Source: Dysidea avara (taxonomy: Eukaryota). From it: 64,000 nt of DNA. The position numbers and the translations under genes are program-made. The notes below the pieces were generated by a model. The model was not told where the DNA came from. It was given only the letters and a program-made list of their open reading frames with translations, and did not search any database. Positions 3,029-63,467 of this stretch are shown in pieces (the stretch's first letter is position 1; each line of letters starts with the position of its first letter). Location of the stretch: NCBI RefSeq assembly GCF_963678975.1, contig NC_089285.1:12087725-12151724 (forward strand), written 5' to 3'.

Positions 3029-4794
3029 CTTATACACCGATTTTCAGCTCATTGCTCTAAGCGGTTTGCCTACTGGCGTGAAAACTAATACTTTTTTATT
3101 CATAAAAATCAATCGCGTAATTGTGACACAGGTTCGGTTTTGTGTCATATCTCCGTGGTCTTTATCTCGATTCCTTTCAAACCACCAAAAGGCACTCCTA
3201 CGATGTTTGCGCCATCTACATAGCAATTTTCAACTCATTCCATGAAGCGGTTTACCCTGTAGGCGTGACAACAAATCGATCTTGTTTTACGCAAATAATC
3301 GGTCATAACTCCTGAACCATTTATCGGATTTGCACCAAATTTGATGCTAGGATTCGCCTTTGGACTCCCTTTCTGCGTGCCAAATTTCAAGGCGATCGGA
3401 GTACGCGTTTGCGTTTTATAGCAATTTATGCAAGCGTGCGAAAACACGAAGAAGAAAACGAAGAAAAAAATTGAAACTTTGGCAGCTCGTATGAGTCGTA
3501 TCTCGGAAATGGCTGGAGCGATTTCCTTCACATTCGAAATGTAGACTCCTCTGGCTGGTAGGAAACCCTGTAGCAAATTTGGTTCCAATAGGATAAGGGA
3601 TCACCAAGATACAAAGGTGTGCAAATGACGTTTGCTTTCTTTCTGTAAATATACTCACGGTGTGGAGCGCCGGCTTCTTGGGCCGCACGACATACCGTGT
3701 GTCTTGATATTAGAATTATAATAACAATAATAATTATTATTATTACTAGGACCGCACTACATACAAAACCAAGTACATGTATCAACATGACAACCTAACA
3801 CCAGAGCAAGGCATAGACAGTGTGTATCTACCACACTGTTTACTGAAGAGAATAAAACACGTAACAATACATGACTGTTAGACTACTCTATTAAAGTATA
3901 TTGATCTGTGCAAATTTGAAAGCTGGACACACAGAGCTAAACAGGCAATTAAGTGTGTGTTCTTATTGACTGACTGCTCTATTAGAGTATCTCTACTATG
4001 CAATGCAACAAACTTACTTCCACCCTTCTTACAACTGTAATTTTAAAGATTCGTGCAATCAGCAGTACTGCTCTTTCTTTTAAGTCATGAAGGTCACACA
4101 TACCCTACATTATTAGAATATTTACAAAAACACATGGCAGCTTTGTAAGGTGGCATGCAATGATTAATTTTACAGTGAATGTACAACTGCAGATAGGCTG
4201 ATTTGATATTGAGTATATACATGGGTAGCGCGAAACTATGTGGCTATGAACTAAGCAAGGGGTCAGTCACATTCTGAAATTTTGTACAAGTCTTTTAAAA
4301 TTAATTAGAAATTAGAAATTTTGGTCTGAATTTTGAAAGTTTTGGCCTAAATCTTTTCATTAGCGCATGCCCCGCTATTGTCCTGTCCCACTTTTGGAAG
4401 AGCCCTGAGCTGCTGACAAGTTTTTCTTAAACTTTTCCTACTTATTGCAAACACTTGTAACGATGAAACACTCATTTTTAGGGATGTGGCGATTATGCTG
4501 GCATAATTTCAGGCAATATAGGTATAGTTATGCTAACCAGTTTGTGGTGTTTATCATAGTAAAGTTTTAACAATAGGAAAATCTGCAGATTGGCGATTGC
4601 ACAATTCCATTTAAGAAGATCAAGATACTCTAATAGAGCAGTCGCTGAATATTATTTACTCTAATAAAGCAGTCACATTGAAATGAAATACTCTAATACA
4701 GCAACCAGCTAAAGAATTCAAGACTACTTGAAGCTTAAACACATCAATGAATATGGTCTGATACAGCAATAAGAGCCAATTATGGTGGCATAAT

Positions 4795-5130: not shown

Positions 5131-7168
5131 AATAGGTGACCTTGTGAGTGCTCAAAAGCATAATGCTCAATTTTTGGAACATGATAGCCTTATGTCTACT
5201 TAATTTCTCTACATAAAACTGTTACCCCAGCATTTTTATACATAATAGGCACCTGTAAAAATAATTATCTTATGACAGCTATTATAGCTACTTATAAAGG
5301 TTTCAGTTGCATTTCTAAAGGCCTAAATTTCTAAGTGAAATACATTGTTGGAGAGTGCTGTGAAAGATTTCTACTGTAGGTACATAATTATAGCTTGCTA
5401 TATTGATTGAACGTGCTCCAGCCCCTTTAAAAAGTTTGTATCTACCCACAGTAAAGAATTGTGTATCTTTAGGAAACATGTGCATATTTTTCTTTGCTAA
5501 ACCAAATTGTACTGGTCATTTTTGATTAAATTCTGAACCAAGAGTTAATAATAGTGGAGGGCCTGAACAATAAGCATAGAAACACCCAGAGTTGATTTAA
5601 CCCTTTGTAGTAATCAATCGTGCATGCATATAACTATGTATACCCTTCAGTGCTCGAAATAGTGTCAAAATATTGCACTGTCAAAAGGTCTGGACAAAGT
5701 CACCAATGACCTGTAATTAATTATGGTTGTCCAGTCACACTCAAAACGTACTTCAGCATGCAAATTCTAGGGGGTCTGGGGGCATTCCCACCAGGAAATT
5801 TTAAAAATTACAACTTCTGAGATCACATCTGGAAGCATTTTGAAAGGGTAACTTTAATCTGTGAATCACTTACATACTTTTTACCTTATACAGATATACA
5901 ATTAATTTTATTATTGATAGGAAACAAGAATTGATCAGTTTGTGTTATTGTACAATGACAATTTGTATCTTACATGTAGCTAATATCACAACAAAATCAA
6001 AATGTTACAATTATTGAATGTATTACTACACTGCTTTTAACTGATATTTACAGTAAGTGAAACAGTCATACCTATAGCTAAGTCAGTATTTCAAGCTCAC
6101 AAATAACTCCTGTTCCTAAGCTTAGTGATTTAGCAATTAATTGTATAAGCAATATTCATTTTTCTTTTAATCTTCAACTTTGCAGCCTCGCTATGGTTGG
6201 CTTGAGCCATTGCCCTTGCAATTGGTGCATATTTTATCAAGCTACTGGCTGCCTCCTTCCATATGCCATTGCTCACTTGTGCATATCAGTTGCTGAATGA
6301 TCCTTGAAGGTCAAAGCACGAATATTGGTTGTGCCTTCAATAAGGGCTGGCCTATAGCTAGTTTTGCATCAAGCAGAGCTTAACATTAAATTTAAAGCAA
6401 ACTTCACATTTTAGCATGGTCACATACTCCCGATCACCAGACACTGCTTCAAACCGCAACCATCGTGTTTACTATTTTCAGACACCCACTTCTCCACCAT
6501 TTCCTTTGCTACCACACGCTTATTAGTGCTTCTGCAACCATTGCTAGCAGTATCTTCACTGGCTCTCTTTTGTCTGGACAATTAGTCCAAATAAAATTAA
6601 ATAGAAACTTATTCAGTGCATTGTCCGGATAATTTCCGGTTGTCAAACATTATTTCAAGCACTAATTACCTTTCTCTATATAGGTTGCATGAAGGATGTA
6701 AAGAGCACTGATACAAATTTATATAGCTCTTTAAATTTTGATCTAGCTCTCCTTAGTCAAGAAGAAACAGAAACTGAATACCTATATACAGTGAGGCAGA
6801 ACACAAAAGCAAATGCAGGTTTAATTGATGATTCATGTGGTATTACATACATAGACAGTGCAGAATGGTAATGAAGGTTTCATCTTATGCAGAAAAAAAA
6901 CTATTAGAAAAATTAATTGTGGACAATTAACTGACAGGATAAATAATTAATGTGCTATGCTCTTTTCTAAAAGTACAATTTCTTGACTATGCATGGAACC
7001 AGTGGCATTGCAGACATGGAAGTAGCAGAGCAGGTAGTTGTAAAACCAGGAACAGAGAAATAGGAAATGGGAAACAAGAAGTGGGTGGAAATGGAATTCC
7101 TTCACTGCAGAACACTCTTCATTTGTAAATTGAAGGGGTAGCAGAGCACAGGTTTTCTCACAACTTAA

Positions 7169-11153: not shown

Positions 11154-14100
11154 CAGCATTGAAACCGGGTCACTACTGCTGACCCGGACCCGGATAGCAA
11201 TCTGGGTCAGACCCGGATGTGACCTGGATTAATTAAAGCCAAGGCGTGCGATAAGAGCTATGTTTCGGGTAGTCTCGAGCAAGCGAGACGTACAAGACTA
11301 CATTTTTAGCGTTTGATTCGTGTTGAGTAAACAAGTAGTTATGTGATAATTAAGCCGGTAAGTTTATAAATTTAAAATCAATCAGTGGGTTTTGCATGGT
11401 TCCACATAGTGTGGCTTCGTGCATACCTAGTATTACAATTTCCCGATATATTAAAGTGGGTGTGGCTCACAAAAGTACTTATCCTATTGCAAGACTAGAC
11501 TATATACAACTCGAATAATAATCGATAAGTGAGCATGGCTCCACGTAAGCTTGCAGACAGCAACGAACACAGTTTCATGCTACAGACTGCACTTACTAAT
11601 AAATGGGCATGGTTGAGCATATGTTTGTAACGTGATTAGTGGGCGTGGCTCACGAAAGAGCTACGCGACTAATGTTTTATAAGTTTCCACGTCGTCAAAC
11701 GAACTGCTCACGTGATCCAATCCAGTGGACAATTTGTAAACAGGCGGATGACCTGGAAAATTTGACCCAATCCGGTTTCAACACTGATTTCCACATCGTC
11801 AAATTAATTCATTTGTGTTACACGTGTTCCAATCCAGGTCAGACCCGGATATTCAATAAAGCTGATCTTATTAGGCACCAGCCTATTATGCTTTTAATTT
11901 GGCCTATTATGCTATGCTGCAGTGCTCAAAATTTTTCCTCATAATTATGCTCACAATTTTTGCCACAGTTCCAATGTTTTGTTACTTTCTATGGATAATG
12001 ATAAACTTTGGCATATTAACAACTGGTTAAATGTAAAAAGTACTTGTGCATTAAGAATTTGGCTGCATTGTAAACTATAATAACAGTGATGTCAGATAAC
12101 TACTTAATGCCATATAAGTGACATCGACTGTTCTATTATTGTAAATCAACCTTTTTCTGTGGCATGCATTTTTGCTTACAGTATGACAATTATTCTGCCT
12201 ATTATGCTAACATTATGCCTGATCCTTTCAGGCACTTATTATGCTCAAAATTATGCCAGCATAATAGGCTGGTGCCTAGATCTTATGCATTACTTAGTTT
12301 CAACCCTGATTGTAGTTGTGTGAGGCAAGCAAGAACTTCAAATTGTACAATGACATGGACTGCAAGTACAATGAGTTTTTTCTGCATTTGATAAAGTTAA
12401 AACAATTGAGAAACAAGTTAATGTACAATGGCAGTAAATTAAAATTTATATAATTTAACAGTACAGTAATATTCTGTTCTACAGCTGCTTGTTTAGTATT
12501 ATATTATTTTTTCCTGACAGCCTCATAGTACACAACCGAAGACTCAACTGCATCATCCTTCAGTCTGTTTCTGTCCTTACATGCAATTCTTCCAGCGCCA
12601 CTAAAATGTCTTTCCGATTCCGCACTAGCTGCTGGTATAACTAAAAGCTGCCTAGCTAGACAAACAGGAAAACTATACCTTTGTTCACCCCACCACAACA
12701 ACGGATCAAATATGCTCCGAATGCATGAGCCTGTGTCAAATAGACACCAGTAATTGAGCCATAGCGACTAAGCTCTTCATTTACTTCTGCTGTGGACTTT
12801 TTCCTTGGTTCATCACCAGCAGCATTTCTAAATTCAGCCAATGGGTCATGCTTTAATCTCTTACTAGTGACTGCTTCTATTTCCTCCTCAAGTTCCTCAA
12901 CATCACTATCTTCAGGCTCTTTTGGTGGGTTAACATGCGCTTTTGCAATGGCCATGGCATTCTCTTTAATAATACCAGCTGCCTGTTCTGATAAACTGTG
13001 TCGCTCCTCTGCATCCCTTACAAATGAAAATCCTTAAAGAGAGGTAGGAGGTAGCAACATGTAAAATAGTTATATCCTCCCACAACTTAGTATCTAATGC
13101 TGATACTAAATTTCTCTTCAAAATACGTCCTGCTGCAGTGTCTGAAGCAGATAAATCATACCAAAAATTCCCCAGTTTATAAAATGAGGGCAAAACAAAC
13201 TGGAGGGTGGATACAAAAGAATATTCCAGAATGTCTTCAGCCTTTTCTAAAATTTGTAGCACTTCTTCAAGTAGCAATTTTTCTACTGCAGCTACCAGGT
13301 CTTCACGTCTTCACGTCTTTTATCCCTTAACACTGGCTTTAATGCCTCATAGCTTTTGAATATAGAGCGGAACTTATTAATCAAACTATGCCACGGTCTT
13401 GTTTTACCACCAGCTTTCAGTGTAGCTGGTAAGTTGTACTGGATTCCACCAGATTTTTTTACAAATTTTACTAGACTATTTGCACAGTCATCAAGCTCTT
13501 TTAGCTCTTGACTCTCTGCACATGATGCATCCCATGCAGTGTTTATCGATGTTGACGAACAGTGAAATGCACAATTAACATGGCACTTAGACTTTGTGGC
13601 AGCTACCATATTTGACCCTTTGTCTGTTGTGCATGGGGTATTTTCTGCATCAGGGCCTGCGTCGTCCAAAACCTGACCCAGTGCAACTTGAATGCGGTCT
13701 GCAGTCTTATTCTCAGAAAAACATTTACATGCATACATAGCATGCTTGAGGGACCATATTCTGTTGTTAGGAGCTGATTCCTCCACCAAAAAAAGGTAAC
13801 ATCGAGGTAGGAGCATGACACAACATTATCGGACCACAAATCTGTCACAACAGAAACCACACCTTACTCAACAGACTCTTAATGGTGTCCTGTATTTGGG
13901 GTAGCTTGTTAACAATATCTTTGCACACTGAGCCGTCCAACTATAAACTCAGAAGCCGGTTCACAACCATGAGATGCACCCAACTCCATAAAAGATTGAG
14001 AAAACCCTTTAATGCTTCTTGTTCTACAAACCTATAAGGCAAGTGTGCAGCAGCAACAAGAGTAGCAGTCTTCTCACGAATAGCCTTCCTTGTTCCCTCC

Positions 14101-16336: not shown

Positions 16337-19300
16337 TCTTGTGTAAATGTGTTTTTGGCAGGAAAGCCCTAGCCTTCATGATCCATACTGTAAAGCGCTA
16401 ATAATAATAATAACAACACTAATATGGGTGCACTGGTACATTAATCAGCTTATAGGTTAAGATGTTATCTGCCAGTATTTACTATCGGATAAATAGCTAC
16501 TGATATAACTGGTATTGATTATGTGATGTATATAGTTTATCTTTTACCCATGTATATTCTCTCAACAGGCAGCTACATCAAGAAGATTCACTGGAGATTC
16601 CATAACAGCCTGGGCATACGCATGCATCAATCATGTTTCAATATAATAACAAACTTATGTTGACAAACTATACATTCACTATCTGTACTCATTACTAGCA
16701 TTGCTTAAACTTGAAATTCCAATCATAGTTAGGTAAGTGTACTAATAAAATGTCTGCCAGTCATCCTACCAATCAATAACTATAAAGCCATACAATGCTC
16801 ACGTGAGCTGCTAATCCTGTTTCCATGCCAGACAATTAGCCACCCCCTTGGCTGTCTCTGGGAATATTTATGGCGAGAAGAGGAGGAGGTAAACCCCAGC
16901 GATGCTACTGTTTATTAAGAACTGAATAACTCTGATGTACACCACCATTAATGTTAATGAAACAATTACTCATTGATTTAAATTTAACAGTGATGTGTAC
17001 AGTATATATGTCTTCGCAAATTTCATTGCTTTATAATGATTATGGATTATGCAGCATATTTGCTAGTGTTGCACTCCAAATCTGTGATTTCAAATACTAA
17101 CATTTCCTTGCATAAAGACAACAATCATGTAATTAAAGATAAAGGAAAGGCAAAAGACAGAAGCCAGACATTCATTGGAATCAAAAAAGGCACGTGCCAT
17201 GTATGAGTTTGTTGCTGCATGTGGCAAGAAATGTTGACTGTCGCTAAATTGTTTGGCCTCTAGCCTTGCAACTGTGATAAGGCAGGGAGACCAAAAATTA
17301 GGTTTGGGCGATTTTGAAAAATGGAGCCTTCTGTAATGGTTTCTTGCTTCTAATGCTGGAATAAAGATGATTTTTGCCGCATATGATCCTTCTATGATGA
17401 TTTTAATGGCAGCATTATGGTGAGTGATGGGGGCAACCATACTAAATAGTACTATAGTAATTTGTGATACCCTAGCCCATAAGGTTAACTGTGTCTCTAG
17501 ATCTTCTTGCCTTTACAAAAGTATAGCTATGGATATGCATATATTTCAAAATATATGTACAAAGACACGTGTAATGACCATACACTTAAACTGTATGAAT
17601 TTCATCTGCAGAGAATTTCTTGTCACAATATTAGCATTTCAACAAGTCTGTTTAGAAAATGGTATGCATAATATGCTTTGATCTTTGGAGGATAATGAGG
17701 TCTTTAAAATCCACTAAGAGACCTGCTAGCAGGTTCTTAAAATGGTTAGAAACCTGCTAGCAGGAAAGACCACAAATCTTACCTTTCAATCATTGATTTG
17801 TAATGCTCCCTCCAAGCATATTCAATGTGATAGCCTGCAGTGGGCAACCAGTCATCCAGGACAACATGTGGTTAACTACTCTATTCATTTTAAAGGCATG
17901 CCTAAAAGAATTCGATTATGGGGGTACAAATTTAACATTGTACTTACGTTTGTTACGATGAACGGAGAAGTCCAGAAATACCACAGAAAATTCTGTTTAG
18001 TGCCCATCTGTTTCTAGAGTGTTTTAAGACTGTTTTTGTCTTCTATTAAACCTCTACTACGTAGGACCTAAATGGGTAAGCTTCCTTGTAGAAATGTTAT
18101 TTTTGCACTACGTGTAATGTGGGTGTGGTCCATATTCGAAGTTCTTCATATTACTATGGTGCCACTATAGGCACAACTTGTGACAACCCATTCCCACCGT
18201 ATAAATCCACACAAGCTGCTTCTTCGACACGCGTGTTTTTTACACTGCTGTGACACCAAAGGCACTGGCTACCACTAACCCGGCTCAACATTATCAATCA
18301 CTGCCATTTCCCACTGCTGTACCAGATTCTAATTAGCAAAAGGAAGTGGTGCGAGCTTCAATTTTTTCAAGACTTCGACAAAAGCATGTTCAGTCTTCCA
18401 TAATTATTTTAACAAATGTTGTGTGACGATTTCAGTAACCTAATTCACAATGACTCCAACTATATGCCCATTTTAAAAGTATATAAAAAGTATACATTTT
18501 CTAAGAGACCACACCCTCGGATCTTCGTGGATTTTAAAAACTGAGCGAATCTAACCTATACATAGAATAGGTATTTTAGTTCTTTAAATAAAACAGTCAA
18601 TGGTTGATTATTAATATTTTTATTAGAGTATGTGACAGCTTTACTACATAATCTTAATAAATGTGAGGGGCTCTAGTCCTCATAGTTTCCATATGTCAAT
18701 ATAGGTAACAGATTTCAAAATATCATACACAGATATACAATTCAGCAAAAATGTTTGAATTGTGTTATAAGTGCATAGCTATGCACAATAAGCTGAAGGG
18801 AAGGGAAGGAGGGGGACAGATATACTGTAAATTGGTAAATTTTTGCTTTAGCTGCAAAATAAATTTGAAGTGTTATGTTTTCAGGGACAGCCCAAGCCAC
18901 AATACTTTACCAGTGAAATATTTTGTACAACAAATAATTAAACATATACAGTAGGTGACTTTAAAAAGTTTACATTTGGTTTTGTAAAGACCATTGTAAT
19001 GTAATAGTTTTACTATGACTTTTGTAATGGTAAAAACCAAACATATCGTAATTACTATCATGTTTACATATTTAAAACAAAACAAGTCTAGTTGCCAGTT
19101 GCATGCACAGCCACACACAGAGAGACAAGAACAAATTAAATGTGTAACTACCAGCTGGCAACAAGCTTGATAACAGCAGGGGCAGTGAAATTTGTAACTT
19201 AGTAGCTGTCATGTAGCAGTCAATTAACAAAACAATACCTGTATAACATACAACACAGCACAAGCAATCGTAAAAACCAATGGTAATTACTAATAGTATT

Positions 19301-29740: not shown

Positions 29741-32700
29741 ATGAGCAGGAGGCCAGACGAATCCAAGAACCTGTACCGTATTCCACCGTATTATTACATC
29801 CATGTATTGGACCAGACTACCAATGTGACCCGAATTGAGATTGGTCCACGGACCTTCATCAGGCAAGATAATGAAAAGGTCATCGTTGGACCGGAAAAGA
29901 TGATCACGTGTCCTCCCCGGCACTACTGTGTTATAGAGAACCCGGTTGTCAGGGGTGATGACAAGAAACCAGTGATCGATAAGTCTGGGCAGATTAAGCT
30001 GCGTCATGCAGATCAGGAAATACGCTTGGCACAGGACCCATTCCCATTGTACCCAGGAGAGGTATTGAAGCAAGTGGTGACCCCGCTGAAGGTTGTGCAA
30101 GCCAACTCAGCACTGCGGCTTAGAGCTATTCTTGATTTTGAGTCGGACAGTGGAGAAAAGAGAGTTGCAGGAGATGAGTGGCTGTTTGAGGGACCAGGTA
30201 CGGTGTGTATGTGTGCATGATGCATATGACACAATGTGCAGATGGGCACACCAGTAAGGAGGTAAATAATCTGGTATTTAATGTAATGCAACTAAACTGC
30301 AATAAGTTCACAGCAACAAACCCTTTCTGAAACAATTTGGGACCCTCACATAGTTTCATATTACTTTTACTACCCTTTAAGGGATAATTGTATTCACTTG
30401 TACAAGGTTGTTTATTGGCTTTGGAGTAATTGATGCTAGCCAGTTCTGTTTGATGCACACCATTGTTACACAGGTACATACATCCCTTGTAAGGAGGTGG
30501 TGGTGGATGAAACAATTAGAGCCACAGTGATCAAGCCCAACCAGGCTATCAAGCTAAGAGCAAGGAAGGAAACATTGGTAAGAGGCATTACCATACTTAT
30601 AGTATATCTGTTATCTGCAAATCACCATGTGCCAAGTCCAAGGGTGTTTGGTTTAACATTGTGGTACTATAGTTTCATGTTCTTACCGTTTGTTGGTAGG
30701 ATCGTGATAACAACCCACGTGTTACTGGTGAAGAATGGCTGGTAAAGAAAGTCGGTGCCTACCTTCCTGGAGCTTATGAAGAGGTTGTGGATGTGGTGGA
30801 TGCCTATGTGTTGACTGACAAGGTTTGTGTTAACTTTGTTTGTAATTTCCTAAGCCGTTCAGTTCTGTTATAACTTTGCCTTTTATGATTTCAGGGTGAA
30901 TGTTATTTATGCTTTATTTATTGCCCACCATCTTTATGTTAGGTTGCCCTACACATGAGAGCCTACAGAACATTCAAGGATGTTAAGGATGTGACGCGCA
31001 AGAATGGAGAAGAGTGGCTGATTAAAATGGCAGATACTGAGGCACACATTCCTGATGTATATGAAGAGGTATGTGGATTGCACATGCATGCACTATTACA
31101 TTATTTTATAGGTTTTTAATGTGTAAATGTTTCCAGGGCATGATATTTGATACTTGCCATTTACCGACGATTATTTTATAGGTTGTAGGAGTGGTCAATG
31201 TCACTACACTCACCAACAGACAGTATTGTGTCATCCTGGATCCAGTAGGGAAAGATGGCAAACCACAACTTGGCCAGAAGAAACTTGTCAAGGGAGAAAA
31301 GTCATTCTTCTTACAGCCGGGTGAACGGCTGGAGAAAGGAATACAAAATGTGTATGTACTGGGTGAGGATGAAGGAATTATCTTGAAAGCAAATGAAGCA
31401 TTCAAAGATCCTGAAAGTGTAAGATACTATATCCTCATAATACAGAAATGTCAACTAGGTACAGTGTAATCTCTCTTTAGAAACTTACTAGCAAAACAAT
31501 GATAGGGACAAACTGGCTTTATACAACAAGTTTGCATCTGAAAAGGCATATTACAACACCTAAAATCTTAGTCTCAAAAAGTGTCCAATATAGAAGAGAG
31601 GTTCCATTGATATATTCTTATCCGAATGACTATGTTCATTTTCATAACATTACTACTACCAATAATGTCTGTCACGCTGTGGTACATGTTAATAATCACT
31701 ATAGGGTACTGACTATCGTCCAGGAGATCGATGGATGATTCGAGGTCCACTTGAGTACATTCCACCTGTTAAGGTTGAGGTGGTCACCAAACGCAAGGCC
31801 ATTCCACTTGATGCCAACGAGGGTATCTACGTCCGTGATGTGAAGAGTGGAAAGGTGCGGGCCATCTGTGGCTCTACATACATGTTGACTCAAGATGAAG
31901 AGCAATGGGCCAAGGAACTACCCCCAGGTGTAGAGGAGTTACTAGCAGAAGGGAAAGACCCTTTAGCTGACCGATCAGATCGATGTAAGTTGACATGTGT
32001 ATATAGTATGTGTAATGAGAATAATTTTTGTGCAGCACGGACATCTGCCAACATAAAGAGAGAAAAGACCAAAGTTGTTTCTTTCCGAGTACCACACAAT
32101 GCAGCTGTACAGATCTATGACTACAAGGAAAAAACTGCTCGAGTTGTGTTTGGTCCTGAATTAGTGATGCTGCGACCAGATGAACAGTTTACACAACTTA
32201 GCCTGTCTGGTGGCAAGCCCAAGAGGCCGAACGTAATCAAGTCACTGTGCTTGTTGTTGGGACCCGACTTCTGTACTGATATCATCACCATAGAAACTGC
32301 AGATCATGCTCGACTACAACTGCAGCTTTCTTATAATTGGTGAGCGTTATATAAAATTGTGCATAACAGTAGTGGCTCTAAACTATTAGTATTTTCATAT
32401 TTTGTTTAATTTTTTAGGCATTTTGAGGTTGTTGATCGCAGCGATGTAAAGGATGCTGCTAAACTGTTCTCCGTACCAGACTTTGTTGGAGATGCTTGTA
32501 AAGCTATTGCCTCACGTGTGAGAGGAGCAGTAGCTGGTGTACAGTTTGATGACTTTCACAAGGTGCATATTAGTGAAGATGTTGTAACACCAGCAATGCA
32601 CATTAGAATATGCACATACTGTGCTGTGTACGTACACACGGCAGACTTGCTGTATTACATACATCTTTGACCTGCTGTTGTTACACGATCACAACTACTC

Positions 32701-35974: not shown

Positions 35975-37274
35975 CTAGTCAGTGAGACAATCAATTAGAT
36001 CTTGAAAGTCAGTCACAAACCAACTGGCATTATCCTTGACTTTTTGTCTGATGACAGTTCCTCCATAACCAATAAAAGCATCCTAAACAGAAAACAACAC
36101 ATTACAGAAAAGGTTTGTTATTACAATAAGAAGTGACAAAGTACCCACTGGGATCTCCTTGACAAACAAAGTAAGCAAACGTGACCCGCTGAGCCATTTT
36201 GCATATATATTCCTTGGATTCCACTTTATTGTTTCTCTGTTATCTATAGTAACAAACTAAGAAGTGGACAGGCAAAGTTTCAGCCTTTTGTGATGAATAG
36301 TTTCGATGAAAGACAGTTGGAACAAGAGTAAACTTGATCTGTACAGCAACAATACAGCAAATAGATTACAGGCACTTATTTGATCGATCATAACTCATGA
36401 CTGAAACAAGCTAATCAGTCTGTTCACCATGAACCGGCACATCGATAAAGGTATAGTGTTTTCCATGCACGTCTCTGGTTGGACAAAGAAGGCAGCCATT
36501 CCAACAATGAAATGACAATGATAAACTTTATTTCTACCGCATTGTAAATAAGTGCCCATAACTCACATACTGTAGGTTGTACGAACACGAAACAAAGGCT
36601 TTTTCTTACTCCCCATGAACAGGAGAATCTGGTGGTGTATAGGTTTTATAGATTTGGGCTTTGTTTCAGTACATAAAGAAGTGATTAAAATGTAGGTAAG
36701 CTTTTTTAGCATGCATATTTTTACCAAGTTTATTTCTAAACTTTTTAATAGCAAAATGGAATTTCGCAAAAACAGCCAGTTTTCGCTCAGCGGGTAGCAA
36801 ATAGTTGAGGCTTTACTGTACGACACACAATATAAACCTAGTCACCAGTTTCTTAATTCAGCAACTGTATTTAGACACTTACAGCAGGTGGACAGGCCTC
36901 CAAATCAGTTGCTCCATCACCGATCATCACCACACTATGACAAGAAAAGCAGCGTGAGCAGAGTGGGGATTCTAATAAAATAAGTCAGTCAACTGCTGTG
37001 TGCAGCCTGCCCTGGACCCTTGTGTGTGTACCTGACTTTGGACCACAAACCAAATATACAGTGGAACCTCAGTTGTCCAAACCCCTTGGGAATATAGTCT
37101 GAAAAGTCCATATCTCTGAAATTGTATATAAAATATCAGTATTACTCAACTACCCTAATAGAATAGTCACTACTCTAATAGAGTATTCATTTCATAGTTC
37201 AGTTAACCAAGAATCTGGATAAGTGGGATCCAGAAAACTGAGGTTCTACTGTACGCTCTCCTCCAGTGTGCATG

Positions 37275-37352
<78 letters not shown>

Positions 37353-40300
37353 ATGTGTGTGTAGCAGGAGTGCAAACCACTCCAACAAGCAACCGGTAAA
37401 AACTTACACAGTCCATGTATGTTGTCCAGTTCTATAGGGCCAAATCCCAATACTACGTAAAGGCAAAGCAATTAAAACATTAAACAATGTATACTCGGTC
37501 ACTGTATAAGTAGTGGACATATGCCATTGGAGCATATCATTGAAATCCCCTGCACTGAAAAGCAAACACCAAAATACAACTTTTAACAGCATTGTATGGC
37601 TTTGTATACAATTGGTTTGAAAAAATTAGTATGCAATTCCAAGAGCTGGTCAGTTATTCTATCATACACATGCTTGATGGCTTTTTAGACCCTCATGCTG
37701 TTATTGAACATGTCCTTCTGTCTAGCAACTAAACTGGACACTACTAAACCACAAGAACTACCCTACAGGTGTAGGTGTATGTGTAATTGACCACACAAAT
37801 AAGCATGGTAGCATTATATCAGTACTTACCATTTGTAACCTTTCTCTTTCTTTAGCTTTTCAACTACAGCAGGTTTACCACCTGATCTACTTGTTGGCTC
37901 TTGATCATCAAAATGACTATAGCAACCTGAGCAATAAACAGATAGTGTAAATGCAATTGGGTGGACCAACACACACTACACTACACACACACTACACACA
38001 CACACAAAGACTTGTGGCTGCCGTTGCACACCTACCCAATGAACTAGCACTGGGACACCTGTGCACTACTCAGGTGCTAGGAGTCAGATCCTCCTGGGGC
38101 AGGCTGTGCCATGTCTTACAGATGAAGGGGCGGGTACCCGAAGTCCTTCAACTGCTATATGAGACATGGACAGTCGGCATGTACTTGACCAGTTTACATG
38201 GGTGGTACAGCTGGATGGACTGCTTTCCCAGTTGGCACCAGGCCACCAGGTCCCCTCATACAAATATTATGAACTCTTGATATGAGTAAAGTTTCTTGCT
38301 CAAGGAAACAACAACATCAAAGTGGCATAACTTGGAATCGATCTTGAAACCTTTCGATTACCAGACCGACACTCTAGCCGCTTGGCTATTATAATACTGT
38401 CCAAAAAGTAACTAGTGCATGATCATGCTTAACCCTTAAACCCACAAAACTGGATTTAAAATGTGATGTAACAAGGATTAAAATGACACCTACAGTTTTA
38501 CCCTAAGCTAAACGGTGAGGCCAAAACTAGCCATTTAAGTAACTTTTCAATAAAGAAACGTGCAAACCTTTTACATAGCTTTATAATATTACATCCATAA
38601 CTAGATGGTGGTTGTTCCTATCACCAAAGTTCCATTCAATTTGCCATTAAATTTGCCCTCAGGCCATATATGACTCTCATGTGAGTAAACCCACAATCAA
38701 AATTAAACACATGGCTAGAATTTTGACACACGGAGATGCGACTTCATACCAAGTAGGCCGTTGTAGTTACAGTGTTTATTTAGCCTTCTCCAAGTAGCCC
38801 AGTGAACAGAATTTTGTTGTTGTTGTAGGCTATAAGAATTAAGTTACCCCACCTACTATCGCCATGTGTGCCTAAACATGCATTTCCCAAAAGTCAAGAG
38901 TTAAAAAAGAACACTCTTCAAATTGCACCATAGATGCTACAGGACAGCCACATTAAGTAGTGTGTACTGTTCTTCATGAGTAACAGACTGGACAATAGTT
39001 GAAACTGAGCTGAAATGGCCACATATACTATATATTATCTTCAGCAAGTGCACATGTGTACAGTTACTTTCTTTCACTAAGGAACATCTGAGTAGTATAA
39101 TAATCATGAAAACATGTTATAAAAGTTAACAACATATTAAAAGTAACTAGTACTATTTACCTCTAAAAAGTAAGTTACATGGGACTAAAAGTAACATACA
39201 ATAGTTCCTTTTTTGAAGTAACTACCCCAACCCTGCCAAGAGGCACAAGGGTGGTGTGTACCAAGTGATGCCACCAGATGGCATCCTGTGCTTGAGGTGG
39301 CATCCTGTGCTTGGCACACAGTAATTCAACCTCATAATTGTTGTCAGCATTAGACAGCTATTTTGCACACACACACAAGCACTACACATACACAAGCACT
39401 ACACACCTTTGCTATCAAAGATTATCCTGTTTGCATACAGGTTATCCCTAGGTATATTCAAGTAGTCCATCACTGGCTCAATAACACTCCTAAATCCCCC
39501 AGATACCAGGTAAACATGAGTGCCCTTCTTACGAAGAAGATCAATAAGTTTCCTAGCAAAACAAGATACACACATTTCCACTACCACCTCGATTGAGACA
39601 TTTATAGCACTTGCAGAAGAAACCATTTTTTTTTAAATTCTACACATAAACTTACTCCACATTTGGAGATAATATCTCTTGTGGAGAATGCAGCTTAGAA
39701 AAGTCTTTGAGCTACACAAGAGAGAGTAATTACTGTACATGTACATTGGAGATGACCACAAACTTGAAAGCTACATACTACACAGGTAACAAACGGGACT
39801 ACATAGCGTACACACCCACACCTATTCTAAAGCTGACGTACAGCATGAATATGGTAAAATTGCAAACATGCCAACAGCACAAACAACACTGGTAGTAACA
39901 AATCAAACATAAACAACAAGGAATCAAGAGTATGCAAGCAATAGTTCACAATGCGTGGACCTACACCACTGTGTCACTAATACCCTTGATCGAAAAGAAA
40001 TTAATACTTAAAACTTCTGACATGAGACTATCGCTATTATTTTTTTGCTATGTGGCTTAGTACACTGGGAAAACTGGACTACAGCCTCTCCACTTTTATC
40101 CAGAGGAATCCACTTTCAAAATCGAAGTACTCTAATAGAGCAGTCAAGTGAGAAGGAACTAGATATCCCAGTAGCTATATGATGGAAACTGTTGAATTTT
40201 AGGGTGAAAATGGAATATTTTTAGACCATATGTATGACATTTACAAGTGTAGGATATGGCTTTAATATATTGCTATAGTCTGCAGCTTTTAGATATGTAT

Positions 40301-41264
40301 ACTACCCCAGTAGTACAGTTCATTGCAGTTGATTTCATTTTTGTCAGTGTATTCATGTTGCTGTGTCCCAAAGTAATATATCACATTAAATGAATTTTGG
40401 CCACTTAAATATTAAGCGGCTGAGGGCTGCAACCCCAGACTCCAGCTGCTAGAAACTTAAGTGTTTAATACTTTCGGAAATTCTTCTTGAAAAATCCTGG
40501 CTACACTCTTCCTGCATAAATAAGGCCACTCCAATTGGTAATTATGTTTCTGGTCCACCGCCCGCATCCTTTTTTACAGAAAGTGAAATTTCAGAAATGC
40601 ATGGGGAATATGCCCGCATCAGATTTTCGACAAAGCTGGATTTCAGAAACAAATATTGGGCTGCTATTAACATGCTAAATCTAACTGCTTACGTCTTACT
40701 ATACGTCTTTTATCAGTGAAAACCTACAAGAAATGAGCATAGTGCTAAGTACGGATCGATATACTCTAATAAAACAGTCAGAAAATCGCAAAAATACTCT
40801 AATTGAGCAGTCACTTCAGTATTGCTTTGTTGCTGAATTCCGCCCGCCCGCATCTAAAATTAAACTTCAGATGACCAGAAACATAAAAACAAATTGGAGT
40901 GGCCTAAGGTTTCTCTCTTTCAAACAAAATGTTTATTCTATCAAAATTGTTATAAAATTCAATCTCAAATTATAAAAGGGGTTTGGTCTAGGCAAGACAA
41001 TGACAAGGTGATTACAAAAGACAGATATGATACCTGCTGCTCCGTAGGTTTAACAATGTTCAATCTAGTTTTGAGCGATTCCTGGAAACTCATACTTCCC
41101 CCCATAGCGCGCGTGGTCCACTGTTTAACCTCTTCGCCGACTCCACAGTACTCTGCTAGGCAGTTTAGTCCCTCAATGGTGACCAAAGTACTATCCACAT
41201 CGAAACACACTGCATCCGCTTGACACCAAATTTTCTTAGTGTCTTGCAGCTTTCTATCTGCCAT
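35975..41264 (-). CDS. PSPH: Phosphoserine phosphatase (HAD superfamily), 6 coding exons, about 229 aa
   Basis: MADRKLQDTKKIWCQADAVCFDVDSTLVTIEGLNCLAEYCGVGEEVKQWTTRAMGGSMSFQESLKTRLNIVKPTEQQVSYLSF | LHSPQEILSPNVE | KLIDLLRKKGTHVYLVSGGFRSVIEPVMDYLNIPRDNLYANRIIFDSKG | CYSHFDDQEPTSRSGGKPAVVEKLKKEKGYK | CVVMIGDGATDLEACPPA | DAFIGYGGTVIRQKVKDNASWFVTDFQDLIDCLTD*. This matches human PSPH block for block (DXDST, SGGF, GDGATD motifs). Exons (- strand): 41016-41264, 39656-39693 (38-nt micro-exon), 39407-39552, 37829-37925, 36883-36934, 35975-36082. All are GT-AG and phases are consistent. The stop lies only about 250 bp upstream of the XBP1 ATG on the same strand. Confidence 0.9.
37056..37253. mobile_element. 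MITE (TIR TACAGTRGAACCTCAGTT) with two internal copies of the dispersed 20-bp motif, inside a PSPH intron
   Basis: TIRs at 37056-37080 and 37226-37253. Same family as the MITE at 9971-10222. Confidence 0.7.
37277..37351. repeat. (GT)n microsatellite, about 37 repeats
   Basis: Directly visible. Confidence 0.95.
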
Positions 41265-41539
41265 GGCAATTTTCCAACACGTGCCGGAGGTCAACCTCGA
41301 GGTTAACAATGCACGCCTATGTAGTCTCCGGGCTCGCGCTAATGCGCAAATGCATTAGCGCGAGCCCGGTTGGGCACGAGACTAGAGTCTACAGAAAATT
41401 CCGAGAACACGTATATTCACGGGATATTGTTACGTCACGTAGACTAAATAGCTACGATGTTTTAAGGAATACTTAAGGATTAATTATAATTAACTAAGCG
41501 TGTTAAATCATTAGGATACTGTCATACGAGTAGTCCGCG
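41265..41539. promoter_or_regulatory. Bidirectional promoter region between PSPH (- strand ATG at 41264) and HBS1L (+ strand ATG at 41540)
   Basis: The two start codons are 275 bp apart in head-to-head orientation. The region contains a palindrome at 41328-41369. Confidence 0.6.
41328..41369. promoter_or_regulatory. Perfect 18-bp-arm palindrome CCGGGCTCGCGCTAATGC-gcaaat-GCATTAGCGCGAGCCCGG, with additional outer inverted arms TAGTCTC...GAGACTA (41322-41390)
   Basis: Read directly. The outer arms resemble the TIR tip (AGTCTCGCGG) of the MITE at 41824-42236, so this may be a mini-MITE or foldback rather than a regulatory element, or both. Confidence 0.5.
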
Positions 41540-44500
41540 ATGTCAAGACATCGAGACATACGGCGTTTGGACTATTCTGAAGGTACTGTATAGTGTATAT
41601 AGGTTAGGCTTTGCTTAATTATGAATAAAAGTACAACAGTATATTAGAAATATTCTAAATAGTGCACAGCCTTTGTGCAGTACATAATAAAAGCATACAA
41701 AATTACATTTTGTAGATTTCGGGGAAGATATCTATGGAAGATCATTAGAAGATGATTATGCTGTATCACCAACGTCAGGTAATCAAATAATTTTTTTGAC
41801 TAGTTCCTTTGCAGTCACTACATTAGTCTCGCGGCGCCCGACCCTAAAAAGAGGGTCTGGTGAAACTGTGTACAAAAAGTTTGGCGCTGCTGGAATGTTG
41901 GAAGCTCCAATCAGATCGCTCCATTTCAAATTGATTATGTAATGCGTACATTTCAAAAGATTCGCGGCTTACGGTTAATTACATCCGGTGACCCTGCCAC
42001 TTAAACTCATTGAGAAAACAGCCATACAATTCTGTTGGGTTCGTTTTAATGTTGAATAAATATGGTAGCGCTATTAGTTTGGTGATGCTGTAAGCGGATC
42101 TGGTTGAATGGATGTTGTGACGTAAACAGTGCACTTACGTAACAGGTAAAACGTCATCCAATAAACATTCCAGAGCTCAATCTTTTTGTGCACAGTTTCA
42201 CCAGACCCTCTTTTTAGGGTCAGGCGCCGCGAGACTCACTACATTGGATCCACACAAACAAAACACCTGACTGTAATGTAAAACCTCAATACCATTTACA
42301 TTGCATAAGCAAGGTGTGTGAACTTGACACCCATTGACGGAAGAGCACTGCTTAGACTGCATATGCTGCAAGAAGAGAGTTGGCCAATAAAGTAAACTGT
42401 TTGACTGGGAATTGATCAGTAAAGATATGTGACCCGTTCTGCGAAAAGGGGTCTTATAGCCTTTCCAAATTGTCAAGTTTGACTACTCATAACTCCATGT
42501 TTTCAACCTATCACCTTCATATTACACCCATCCATAGTCCTATGTTAGGGGTATAAGGGTACCAAATTTCAGGGAGATACCTCATTCACAAGTCAAGTTA
42601 CAGGTTGCCAAGTACATGCAATTGAAAAGGCTATAAGACCCCTTTTCACAGTCCGGGTCACATATATTTATTGGTACTTAGTCAAATAATCAATATGTGG
42701 TAATAAGTTTAATATGTGGTGATCAGATCATCAGGCATGCTACAAAAAGAAAAAAATATTGTAAGTTAAATACTTGAGAAGTGAAAATAATTTCTTGTTA
42801 AAACATAAAACAGTCACTTTTTTTTCCATTATCAAAATGTTGATCTCAGTTGCTAATGGATATACAGGGCCTATGTAGTGAATACCATTTGTTCTATACT
42901 CTTAGCACAGTTCATCTTCAATCGAGAGAATAGTCAGGGAGCATCATTAATGTCCTACATGTCATCGAAGGAGCCAGTACCCATCTCTCCGTTAAATGTG
43001 TCTACTAAAAGTGATACCCCCATCGTGAACCTGGATGTCAAGACAGTTGGTATCTCCAACATGAGTGATGGTTGGTATATGCGTTGTGTATATAATATTA
43101 TATGTTAAAATGAGATATGGCTAAAGACAGTGTATTTAACTATGCTACTGTAAAATAGTTTTCTTTGACGTATGTATAGTGCAGGTTCAATTTAAGAAGT
43201 TGTGTGTGATGGTAATTAATGTTTCACAGTGCAACGCACATACATACATACATACGCACTATGATTAACTGATTCCTGAGAAAACAGCTTAAGGTGTTTT
43301 TTTTTTCTCAAGAGAGGTCATTCAGCCAATTAATGATAACAAAGGATATCATTTGTGGCTTCAAGTTTCATTTCAACATTGAGAAAAGGTCACCAGCTGT
43401 GCATTTTATGGCTTCTCATGAAATTATTAAAATATGGTAAACACTTTGATTTGGTATGTTAGACATTTGAGTGATGAGATTTAAAAAAATGGTTTTAGCA
43501 AATCAAGCAGTACTAGAAATGAGGCGAATTCCAAAATCCTGTATAATTCTACCAAGAGTTAATAATATGGACCCTCCCATATTATTAACTCTTGATTCTA
43601 CTCTTGAGTTATTAAATGTTTTTGAGGGATTGGCTCAATGTTGGTATACTGTAGTGACAACTTATCTCCTTATACAGTTCAGCTTGACAGTGGGATACAG
43701 TACATCAGGAATGTTGTTGGTTACCAGTTCAGTGAAGAAGATATGGTAGATGCAATGAGGCATTGTAATATGGATGCTGAAGCTGCTTTAAACCAACTAC
43801 TGGAAAGAGGTTAGTTATAGTTACAGATGTTCATGCTACCTTCTAATTGTGGGGTACGGTACATTACATTACCAAGAGTTAAAACGGTGTGGTCTCAATG
43901 GTACGTACGCTGTGGAATAAACTACAGTGTGAGCTGTGAAGCAATCCAGTCATTTTGTGGCACGTTAACAACAGGGGTGGGTGGATTGGTGAATGCAATT
44001 CAGGATACTAAATGCCATCATATTGCAGTGACTGTTTTCATGTGTACTTGAACAATGAACACACTTCACAATAATTACTGTGATTCATGTAAATAACACA
44101 TATAATAGTAGTATAGTATATTTACAGTTTCTTTGTTGATCAAGAAGCATAGTAGTGTGTCATGTACGGCCCAAGAAGCCAATGTGCTACACTGTGGGCG
44201 TATTGACAGGAGGAGAGATAATGCAATTTCACACAGTTGTTCCTTTATCTGATTATATAGTAGAATTGCCCACCTGGTCTTGCAGTCTATATCCAAGTTA
44301 TCATTGTCTTAGTCAATCCCACAACCAAAATCCAGCATTTTTTTCTATTACTACTTTTCACTCACTTTGCAGAAGTTGCTATAAAACACAAGTGCATACC
44401 TGAAATTTGGCACCCTTAAATGGGCTCAAATTCAAATCCCAGCACTAAATTTTGTGTAAATCCATTGACAATCCACGAGGTTATGACCGATTGTCCGCGT

Positions 44501-60891: not shown

Positions 60892-63467
60892 GGTGAAAAT
60901 CGTTGTATGCTTCAGTCTACAGATACTTGATTCATGTACAGTATACACATGTATGCAAATCATCAACTACATTTTTGCACAATTTCTCCAGAGCAAAAAG
61001 GTAAGTTTCACGCATACAGTACAATCAAGACCTAGTTAACCATGAAAAGAATTCACAATTACACCTAGTTCATAAAGACTTATAGCTCATATTCTACAAA
61101 CAGAACTAGTACAACTACAGGTTGTGGTGAAACCATAAAACCAGAAACCTGATATGATATCAGGACAGTTAATACATTGCAATCCACAGCTGCATTCAGT
61201 TATGTACAGTAAGTGCCATCATAAATTTTAACACCATTCCTTTTAGGCTCAAACAAAACTGCTTAGGAGGTCTGTTAGCTTACCACACACATGCACGCAT
61301 ACACACACTCTTCACTACAAGTGACCAGCAACATTAGCATGTAACATATCCTGTAATGTGTTCTCATACTATTGCCAACCGATTAGCATAATGTCAATGT
61401 GTACACTGACATGCAAATCAATAATTTCTATACAAGTATACAAATTTTCAACTAGAGTAGGGACCATAGCACATCGATAAAAAGTAATGCATGACATTTA
61501 ATCACAGCAAAACAATCAGAAGTGCTATATCCCTACTGTGCTCAAGATACCATGCGCAGTAGGGATATAACACTTTTTATTGTTTTACTGTGATTTAATA
61601 CTACTCCAGCTTGTTTCAGTACTTTTATCAATGTGCTATGCTACTCTAGTTGAAAATTCCAAATTAATTTTTTTTGTGTGTGTGTACTTATTTGTTAACT
61701 TTTTTTTGTAAGTGACTGGTGAACCCACGCAAACAGAAAGTAATGGCACCACATGCCCCAGTTATCAATAATCATCTGAAAAGTGAAGCATCCATTACGC
61801 TTCGTTGTCAGTTACGTTCAACCGGTTACACAGCATTACGAATCAAGAACTATTCGAAAAGTACTTGCAGCCACTTCCGTTGCGAAGGGAAGCCATCACG
61901 TTCTACAGCCAAATCGACACTTTTCGCTGCCAGCAAAGATGAATGGGACACAAAGGAGGACACTGGTAAGTCCATGAAGAATGAATTGTATGTACTGCGG
62001 TATGCCAAAAGGTACCTGTCGGCCGAAGCAATGTCAAACAATGAAAAATCAAGCCCGTAGCCTTAGCCATTATCGAGTTACACTTGTCTGAAAGAATCAG
62101 TTAGTCAGTCACTCAGTCACTAGAAAATTCCGTTTAATAATTTTTTTTTATAAAAAAAATTCGTAGCAACTTGTTGAAAGTGTTTTGAGTCGATCTGAAG
62201 GCTTGTTTGGGTTTAGTTTTACCTAACCAATACTGCTTCATCGTAATCAGGAAAAAGAGAGACTGGTTTTGGATGATTTTTTTCATGGGCCACGCCCACT
62301 CCTGGTCCCTACAATACAGCACGATAGTACTGTATGATAGTAGGAGAGTAGACTAGATTCATGTACAGATCAAAGAACATGATTACTTATGGTGCACTTC
62401 ATCATTTGACATGACCAATGGATTGAAATTAAAGAATGTCCACTACAAAGCAACAGGTGTGGGCGACCTCCCTTGTTTCATTTCTATGACCTACTTGAAT
62501 TTAAAATTCGTAGTACTTGTTTTTGTAACATAATTGTGACTGGTATATTCGTACATACCACATCAAAGGACTATTATAAAGCACATCTGAATGTGTGTCC
62601 CAGCTATTAATTATTGAAAACAAAGTGGCCATTCTGCTTCATTTTCAGTTATGTTCCATGTAAGTACCTGTTACACAGCACAATAAATGAAATACAAGAA
62701 ATACCAATCCAGTCACCACCGAAAATACAGACGATTTCATTACAAATGTGATAGTCAGCACAAGGAAGCTACAGACGATACCGCAATCACAAAATCTGTC
62801 TAACACACTCCCAACAAGTTTCTATGGAGTTTTAATTTTTCCACTAACCCACTAATACATAGCTCGACTGTGGATAATGCTAGAGGCTTGATTTCTTCAC
62901 TGTTTTCCATCACTTCAGCCTGAGGCAAGCCTTTTTGTCTACCGCAGCAGCTACAATGGATGCATTATGGAGTCTGTGTCCCATTTCTCTCTCCACTATC
63001 ACGTAGGTGTTGATTTATGGGTATGTATAATAGCTTTGATATCTCCAATGATGTTTCTTGGTGTTGCAATTACATTTGTTGATGTCACAAAACAAAATGG
63101 CTACCCAAGTGTGGGGACTTTGTACGAGAAAGTATTAGGTGAGGCAATGTTTTGCTTTAATAAATCAAACAAGGACAAAGGTAAGGTGTATATAATATTA
63201 CTACATTGCAATACATTAGTGCATGCATTGAATAAATTGGTTTGCTTTCATCTGATTAGCCCATTTTGCATTGGCAAAATACGTCTACTGCCTCCTACAG
63301 GTGTATGTCCTAGTTCCATCTGTAAAAAAGCTATTAATCAGACACAACCAAACCCAAAAATGTCTTCATGCCTGAAAACTGGCCGTCTTAGTGTGAGACT
63401 TTGTCACAAAATGAATACTGTTGAAAGTGAAGCTGGTTTTGGGTTGGCAGGAACCTTCATCACCTCT

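Follow-up and report, generated by a model that had tools for sequence, protein, structure and literature searches.

The divergent genes PSPH and HBS1L of Dysidea avara, a demosponge with a genome of 575 Mb (PMC12909245), are separated by a short intergenic region that harbors a perfect 42-bp palindrome, and this palindrome is flanked on both sides by sequences resembling the ends of a local transposon family. The 63-bp unit that comprises the palindrome and its flanks (41322–41384 of the window, i.e., the whole 64-kb stretch of DNA analyzed) may be read, with a probability of roughly one half, as the decayed relic of a MITE in which a secondary perfect foldback has formed, and which would now be immobile and carried by the promoter as a lineage-specific passenger. 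The palindrome would thus be a new instance of known phenomena (i.e., a transposon relic and inverted-repeat formation) in a sponge promoter.

PSPH is read on the minus strand from an ATG at 41264 and HBS1L on the plus strand from an ATG at 41540, leaving an ATG-to-ATG gap of 275 bp; translations and exon mapping agree on this divergent arrangement, which had been claimed earlier from the sequence alone. The N-terminus of PSPH (MADRKLQDTKKIWCQADAVCFDVDST...) opens exon 1 (41034..41264, minus strand), which has 77 codons and a GT donor at 41033-41032 and corresponds to exon 1 of XP_065891505.1, "phosphoserine phosphatase-like [Dysidea avara]". This protein sits in the 90% cluster of the window's PSPH ORF in the protein collection, and all six of its exons are placed on 41264..35978, the extent of the whole gene. 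Against Pfam, exon 1 gives a weak HAD hydrolase match. HBS1L begins with an exon of 14 residues (41540..41582, plus strand), spliced at 41582/41716 to a second exon of 21 residues (41716-41778, plus strand), with an N-terminus that matches HBS1L. The GTPase and C-terminal exons continue to 55178, the downstream exons matching the HBS1L GTPase; the query was the human HBS1L sequence, used for locating exons only. An identical copy of the window's PSPH ORF is found on the 5.77-Mb ENA contig ctg11867l, which equals the window over 6.3 kb.

The window is strongly depleted of CpG (CpG o/e of 0.37, GpC of 1.05), which is probably the signature of a methylated genome. The intergenic region (41265..41539, unstranded, 275 bp) is CpG-island-like, with 22 CpGs and an o/e of 1.60, and a peak of CpG is centered there. 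With an island of 1.6 inside a window of 0.37, it is credible that PSPH and HBS1L share this region as their promoter; the bidirectional promoter context that the sequence-only reading had described is backed both by this contrast and by the spacing of the two genes. Additional motifs in the region include an E-box CACGTG (41278-41283), a near-palindrome GTCAACCTCGAGGTTAAC (41290-41307), a CRE-like TTACGTCACGTA (41430-41441), and an AT-only palindrome TTAATTATAATTAA (41480-41493).

The palindrome itself occupies 41328-41369 and consists of a left arm (CCGGGCTCGCGCTAATGC, 41328..41345), a nonpalindromic 6-nt spacer GCAAAT (41346..41351), and a right arm (GCATTAGCGCGAGCCCGG, 41352..41369), none of which is assigned to a strand. 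The two 18-nt arms are 100% complementary (18/18) according to a repeat finder, in agreement with the structure first noticed in the sequence. The palindrome lies 63 nt from the ATG on the PSPH side and 170 nt from the other. Such a perfect palindrome is far beyond chance expectation: across 30 composition-preserving block shuffles, the longest arm of a short-spacer palindrome is 12 nt. Even with up to 3 mismatches allowed, a search of the 64-kb window with the arm finds nothing but the arm and its partner (none of 100 shuffles produced a match, 0.00 expected), and blastn-short with the palindrome returns no match longer than 11 nt in the rest of the window. As single-stranded DNA, the palindrome region folds with −28.7 kcal/mol (centroid −26.9; z = −6.3 relative to dinucleotide shuffles), while a 156-nt minus-strand RNA across it folds with −68.1 kcal/mol (z = −6.05).

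Two assignments based on this hairpin were considered and rejected. One is a miRNA or structured RNA: the Rfam scan of 38-45 kb yields nothing at the palindrome with E up to 1, and the 18-bp stem can be extended only across a 9-nt bulge. The other is a Helitron 3′ end, which features a GC-rich hairpin approximately 10-12 nt upstream of CTRR, with insertion between a host A and T. The hairpin is indeed followed by 12 nt and CTAG (41382-41385), but the next base is A and not T; moreover, the DNA to the left of the palindrome is PSPH exon 1, with no repeated body, which counts against a Helitron. The CTAG is explained by the MITE tip GAGACTA followed by a G.

The MITE family in question is represented in HBS1L intron 2 by a full Mutator-like copy (41824..42237, unstranded), which begins 455 bp from the palindrome, carries 59-nt TIRs that are 95% complementary, and served as the reference for the tip. 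The tip had previously been given as AGTCTC; that sequence does match the family, but the true tip is one base longer, TAGTCTC. With the tip read as AGTCTC, the TSD of this copy is CACTACATT. A peptide encoded by the MITE terminus matches 13 called ORFs, each on a different contig of the ENA assembly that contains ctg11867l, and four of these loci (80 kb, all from ERZ25068803) were taken for the analysis of MITE ends and TSDs. The full copies there end in TAGTCTC...GAGACTA and are bordered by perfect 9-bp TSDs (GGCCAGTGC, GTTTGACGG, and GTGCCTGGC). The 9-bp TSDs and long terminal repeats are consistent with a Mutator-like family; no MULE transposase was found in the copies examined. A DDE_3 ORF inside a 2.8-kb MITE copy is Tc1/IS630-like and probably nested, and the terminal sequence of the local family reads TAGTCTCGCGGCGCCCGACCC.... 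The occurrence of one untargeted copy per 64 kb suggests that the family exists in thousands of copies.

The terminal motif of this family is present at both flanks of the palindrome, inverted, inward-facing, and spanning 63 bp (41322-41384). On the left, TAGTCTC (41322..41328, plus strand) reproduces without a difference the 7-nt tip that all full copies have, and the palindrome starts with its last base. At the other end, on the right, GAGACTA (41378-41384) is separated from the palindrome by 8 nt (ttgggcac). The earlier description of outer arms TAGTCTC/GAGACTA is correct in that both exist, but the left one shares its final C with the palindrome, and the right one is 8 nt away. The right tip matches the family for 8 nt (CGAGACTA at 41377-41384, inward TAGTCTCG), and the likeness extends further inward over 41368..41384 (minus strand, inward TAGTCTCGTGCCCAACC): aligned as TAGTCTCG-TGCCCAACC to the family sequence TAGTCTCG[CGG]CGCCCGACC, it shows 8 nt of exact identity, a 3-nt gap, and then 7/9 matches, with both mismatches being CpG transitions. 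On the basis of this alignment, with its 3-nt deletion and two CpG transitions, the 8-9-nt "bulge" on the right side is a putative decayed MITE terminus.

The specificity of this resemblance was assessed by sliding the 21-nt MITE terminus along both strands of a 145-kb sample of the D. avara genome (~290,000 positions). Among non-MITE positions, 41384(−) ranks first and 41322(+) fourth. In Monte Carlo sampling, the frequency with which a random site has TAGTCTC no more than 18 nt away on one side is 8e-4. We conclude that the palindrome is apparently bracketed by MITE-end relics, an identity that consists of 7-8 nt of tip plus a short gapped alignment and has a post hoc significance of about 1e-3. 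The interior differs from the ends. The arms have no significant similarity to the MITE repeat, with shuffles scoring as well in 1401/2000 and 1140/2000 cases, and therefore the palindrome is not simply two abutting repeats. The long (~59-nt) TIR homology of the family also fails at the palindrome, where approximately 17 nt align, on the right side only and with the 3-nt gap. The 63-bp unit has no 9-bp TSD (ACGCCTATG versus GAGTCTACA, 4/9 matches), and a search for TSDs of 5-10 bp at several candidate unit boundaries returned just nonadjacent 5-mers. Elsewhere in the window, faint arm-like and tip-like matches occur at 4226-4374 and are not interpretable.

Some of these observations would also accommodate a purely de novo product of template switching or fold-back synthesis, with a coincidental likeness to MITE tips. 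TAGTCTC is a fairly frequent word (the 145 kb contain it 23 times, versus ~18 expected), a flanking inverted repeat of at least 6 nt accompanies 5% of random sites in the Monte Carlo sampling, and both the dissimilarity of the arms to the MITE repeat and the lack of a TSD agree with such an origin. Coincidence is nevertheless quite improbable, given that, of ~290,000 positions, no more than four non-MITE ones need be counted to include the two flanks, that both are correctly oriented, and that the right flank resumes its match past the gap with no differences other than CpG transitions.

Further copies of the palindrome were sought at several levels. With up to 4 mismatches, no second copy is present in the 64-kb window or in 80 kb of additional D. 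avara DNA (i.e., 145 kb of 575 Mb). The paired-arm pattern has 0 matches in the JGI metagenomes. A single arm has 30, on contigs mostly of high GC (0.44-0.71) and with at most 2 nt of extension; these contigs look bacterial, and the matches are due to chance. The peptides encoded by the palindrome, taken from the only open frames across it, were compared with 5.8 billion protein clusters, among them ORFs from the D. avara ENA assembly, and have three 5-residue words in common with none; the MITE terminus, with its 13 ORFs, served as the positive control. If the MITE copies number in the thousands, the sensitivity of this ORF trace is perhaps ~0.3% per copy, so that the null result is compatible with a family numbering as many as hundreds of copies. 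The copy searches bound the number weakly and exclude very high copy numbers only.

This weak bound leaves some room for the 63-bp unit being one member of a low- to moderate-copy subfamily of miniature foldback MITEs that was mobilized by the same transposase via the shared tip and inserted in the promoter. The inward-facing family tips on both sides fit such an element, as does a second "tips-only" MITE structure at 11270-11300. Mechanistically, the MULE transposase Muta1 binds specifically via a terminal motif of roughly 10 bp (PMC5499845), and MITE families come from internal deletion of larger elements (PMC3814204). A mobile subfamily is still unlikely, as every full copy examined has a 9-bp TSD whereas the unit has 4/9 matches, a 9-nt asymmetry separates its left end from its right, and no second copy appeared in the 145 kb, the JGI metagenomes, or the called ORFs, where the control was positive. 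The sequence-only reading had offered a MITE-derived foldback as its alternative to a regulatory element. The derivation is upheld by the inverted family tips with their first and fourth ranks, but mobility is not, in view of the missing 9-bp TSD and the lack of another copy in the searched data.

Perfect palindromes with short spacers are a recurrent feature of this genome. Four in the window exceed the shuffle maximum, with arm/spacer lengths of 18/6 (at 41328), 18/6 (at 43553), 14/15 (at 17722), and 13/18 (at 61526); the last one is the center (13+18+13) of a foldback MITE at 61443-61658. The additional 80 kb of D. avara DNA contains palindromes of 23/10 and 14/14 as well as satellite-borne ones. 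Their geometry varies, one is met every 20-25 kb or so, and other sponge assemblies also carry such palindromes. At this density, some are expected inside promoters by chance.

The palindrome at 43553-43594, located 2.2 kb from the first, is likewise 18+6+18 but has an unrelated, AT-rich sequence, and it is bordered on both sides by a 7-nt direct repeat, ATTCTAC. Its minus-strand arm and spacer resemble a sequence at 5539, and the Rfam scan gives a weak, subthreshold MIR781 match on it. The geometry shared by the two 18+6+18 palindromes is probably a coincidence, though an unexplained one at n = 2; a defined "18+6+18" class was rejected on account of the 23/10, 14/14, 14/15, and 13/18 geometries in the same genome. 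It is very unlikely that the two 42-bp hairpins mark a stereotyped process of sponge genomes, such as a tiny hairpin element or fixed-geometry repair, with one of them perhaps recruited, as a lineage-specific element, into a new bidirectional CpG-island promoter.

An assembly or sequencing artefact was also considered as the origin of the palindrome. The data come from one species-level source, and the window and ctg11867l, identical over 6.3 kb, perhaps derive from the same reads. Yet the assembly is built from long reads, the sequence around the palindrome is unique and flanked by genes whose coding exons are intact to the left and to the right, and similar palindromes of various geometry exist at other loci and in other sponge assemblies. 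It also bears no resemblance to sequencing adapters, judged by the SMRTbell sequence. An artefact is therefore extremely improbable.

On the preferred reading, i.e., that of a decayed MITE relic with a secondary foldback, the unit may have arisen in three steps. A MITE of the local family would have inserted into the PSPH/HBS1L intergenic region. The element would then have shrunk to its ends and decayed, with its TSD lost or mutated, such that the surviving MITE parts would be a left remnant of 7 nt and a decayed right remnant of ~17 nt. Lastly, one arm would have been generated from the other in a single event of inverted copying, through a template switch during replication or through fold-back repair synthesis, overwriting the left terminal repeat beyond its 7-nt tip. 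Such an overwrite on the left would account for the difference between the sides, which is exactly the 9 nt of MITE sequence kept on the right only. The assignment to inverted copying is made by exclusion and from the left/right asymmetry, and the order of events is one that we infer. Template switching is known to create perfect stems in one event (Monttinen & Loytynoja 2022, PMC8794818; Loytynoja & Goldman 2017, PMC5453318) and to lengthen inverted repeats located at promoters, as in yeast (PMC13100816). The hairpins of MULE excision form on flanking DNA and not within the element (PMC5499845), and the palindrome is therefore not a classical excision footprint.

The template-switch model predicts an ancestral allele in which more of the left MITE repeat (TAGTCTCGCGG...) takes the place of the left arm. 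Counting against the relic reading is the fact that the relic is decayed while the arms are perfect. An argument for a young age from the intact CpGs of the arms was dropped, as the region is a CpG island.

The evolutionary depth of the palindrome was examined in four assemblies of related sponges, at their PSPH loci and in as much as 10 kb of flanking DNA. PSPH exon-1 relatives in other sponge-holobiont assemblies have 76-86% protein identity, and the coding exon is the only part that aligns across the four loci, the upstream DNA being unalignable. Within 1.5 kb upstream of PSPH, three of the loci (L002-L004) contain no palindrome with arms of at least 8 nt, while the fourth (L005) has just two with 8-nt arms, unrelated to that of D. 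avara. N-terminal exons of HBS1L were not detected upstream of PSPH in the 1.3-10 kb available (generally 1.3-3 kb, and 10 kb in two species), and the head-to-head arrangement of PSPH and HBS1L appears to be lineage-specific. The palindrome is apparently not conserved, within the limits set by distant relatives, the closest of those compared having 86% protein identity and unalignable intergenic DNA. The sequence-only reading had proposed a shared regulatory element and had named uniqueness and conservation in related species as its marks; the palindrome is absent from all four sponge loci, and a regulatory element finds no support from conservation.

A feature that does recur is the E-box. 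In 3/5 lineages, the 100 nt that precede the PSPH ATG contain CACGTG, at offsets of −19 (window), about −25 (L002), and −96 (L036), against a background of 0.31 per kb, and it is a better candidate than the palindrome for a conserved promoter element.

These comparisons weigh on the proposal that the bidirectional promoter uses the palindrome as a functional cis-element, either a site for a dimeric factor or a cruciform/CpG element that keeps the island open and coordinates PSPH and HBS1L. Its position would suit such a role, as it is central in the 275-bp CpG island between the divergent ATGs, supplies 7/22 of the island CpGs, and has perfect arms; in yeast, the expansion of a promoter inverted repeat by template switching changed expression in one case that was tested (PMC13100816). 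Nonetheless, the o/e of the island is still 1.56 when the palindrome is removed, 18-nt arms far exceed the usual half-site, and the relatives have neither a comparable palindrome upstream of PSPH nor detected N-terminal HBS1L exons in the 1.3-10 kb available there. Considering also that CACGTG near the PSPH ATG is a simpler candidate and that palindromes occurring every ~20-25 kb will at times fall in promoters by chance, a cis-regulatory function is rather improbable. We infer that regulatory function is probably absent: the palindrome is most likely a passenger and not what makes the promoter bidirectional.

Even a passenger may have physical consequences. The palindrome could extrude as a cruciform, at about −27 to −29 kcal/mol per strand, or, if transcribed, could form a strong and inhibitory hairpin in a 5′ UTR. 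In light of the latter, the PSPH start is predicted within the 63 nt between the palindrome and its ATG, and the HBS1L start downstream of 41384.

If the relic reading is true, the unit amounts to routine transposon debris and a replication-error palindrome in a promoter. It would then illustrate how, in a sponge genome that is CpG-depleted and probably methylated, insertions of this kind are tolerated by CpG-island promoters, and how MITE ends can persist as tiny relics. Should the palindrome prove polymorphic and affect the expression of PSPH or HBS1L, it would offer a traceable birth of a promoter structure from a transposon and a template switch in an early-branching animal. Hairpins of 42 bp that were recurrent and stereotyped would matter more.

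Several known systems share features with this locus. CpG-island bidirectional promoters resemble it in their divergent ATGs, here 275 bp apart, and in their CpG content, here an o/e of 1.6 versus 0.37 around it. They describe the context, however, and not the palindrome, and the pairing of the two genes was not detected in related sponges. Foldback elements and long-hairpin MITEs are similar in that the unit is almost wholly self-complementary, and the window holds one such foldback MITE (61443-61658); in contrast to them, the unit, at 63 bp, is far shorter than is typical, and no family was detected. Relics and miniatures of MULE MITEs are matched by the inverted family tips, by the full copy 455 bp away, and by the existence of a multicopy family with 9-bp TSDs. 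Unlike them, the unit has no TSD, its homology is confined to one side and to at most ~17 nt, its interior has no relation to the family, and no other copies were found. Inverted repeats made by template switching are defined by an ancestral sequence that is without one of the arms, whereas the palindrome is assigned to them by exclusion and asymmetry. It nevertheless shares with them an unconserved position in a promoter, the state of a single copy as far as searched (145 kb), and its construction, namely, a perfect reverse-complement copy of the adjacent sequence across a short spacer.

The window as a whole is strongly depleted of CpG, with an observed/expected ratio of 0.37 and a GpC ratio of 1.05. 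Such depletion points to a heavily methylated germline in Dysidea avara. The PSPH/HBS1L intergenic region at 41265-41539 stands out as a sharp CpG island (o/e 1.6), and the young MITE at 41824-42237, a copy of the local Mutator-like family in HBS1L intron 2, still retains a CpG o/e of 1.0.

Within this intergenic region, a CACGTG E-box is found at 41278-41283. Three of five sponge lineages carry this hexamer within the 100 nt that precede the PSPH ATG (the other two at 1272-1277 of L002 and at about 9971 of L036, both PSPH loci from related sponge assemblies), whereas its background frequency is 0.31 per kb. It is a candidate conserved promoter element. The region additionally harbors a near-palindrome, GTCAACCTCGAGGTTAAC, at 41290-41307, a CRE-like sequence, TTACGTCACGTA, at 41430-41441, and, at 41480-41493, a perfect palindrome of 14 bp built of A and T only, TTAATTATAATTAA.

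A perfect palindrome also lies inside an HBS1L intron at 43553-43594, reading CAAGAGTTAATAATATGG accctc CCATATTATTAACTCTTG. It is identical in geometry (18+6+18) to the intergenic palindrome at 41328-41369, but its sequence is unrelated and AT-rich. The heptamer ATTCTAC borders it on either side as a direct repeat, possibly a target-site duplication or else the junction of a duplication, and the palindrome draws a weak, sub-threshold match to MIR781 in Rfam. The minus-strand arm and spacer of this palindrome, CAAGAGTTAATAATA(N3)GAGGG, recur in the window: seven matches with at most two mismatches are found, versus 0-3 in shuffled sequence, with sites at 5539-5562, 38279, 47770, 55340, and 60075. 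At the same tolerance, D. avara DNA from outside the window (80 kb) contains none. The copy at 5539 is a 24-bp segment set between direct repeats of CTGAAC; a longer repeat family could not be delimited.

Perfect palindromes are present in related sponge assemblies as well (L036 2085-2131 and L037 8620-8873). One of them has arms of 18 nt around an 11-nt spacer; in addition, three palindromes with zero spacer and arms of 14-15 nt are clustered in a 250-bp stretch.

Possible reduced and nested forms of the Mutator-like family also occur. At 11270-11300, the sequence TAGTCTCG agcaag CGAGAC gtacaa GACTA consists of both family tips with next to nothing in between. No target-site duplication is found at this structure, possibly another relic or footprint of the "tips-only" kind. 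Larger, probably composite structures occur in the additional D. avara loci. A 2.8-kb copy at 7324-10133 of L040 has perfect tips and a 9-bp duplication, GTGCCTGGC, and encloses a DDE_3 (Tc1/IS630-like) ORF that is probably a nested insertion. At 9261-11566 of L038, a 412-bp copy appears to be nested in an element of a diverged subfamily with the tips TAGTCTCGCGTGGCCAGAC.

Two long ORFs, at 29741-30220 and 31735-32343 (region 29741-32343), may, from their resemblance in sequence, be exons of a major vault protein gene. A 174-aa ORF on the minus strand at 13292-13816 has no Pfam match.

Several further inverted-repeat elements are found in the window. The foldback MITE at 61443-61658 (about 216 bp) is self-complementary over nearly its full length, with perfect 18-nt outer arms and a 13+18+13 palindrome at its center. 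At 17722-17764, a 12-bp palindrome, CCTGCTAGCAGG, is present in two copies 31 bp apart; together they make up a 14+15+14 repeat that is both inverted and direct. The PSPH/HBS1L promoter is itself flanked by two more MITE-like inverted-repeat elements, one at 42417-42673 in HBS1L intron 2, with 52-nt arms that are 88% complementary, and the other at 40523-40905 in PSPH intron 1, with 33-nt arms. Tourist/PIF elements are bounded by TAA, and the element at 40523-40905 apparently is likewise.
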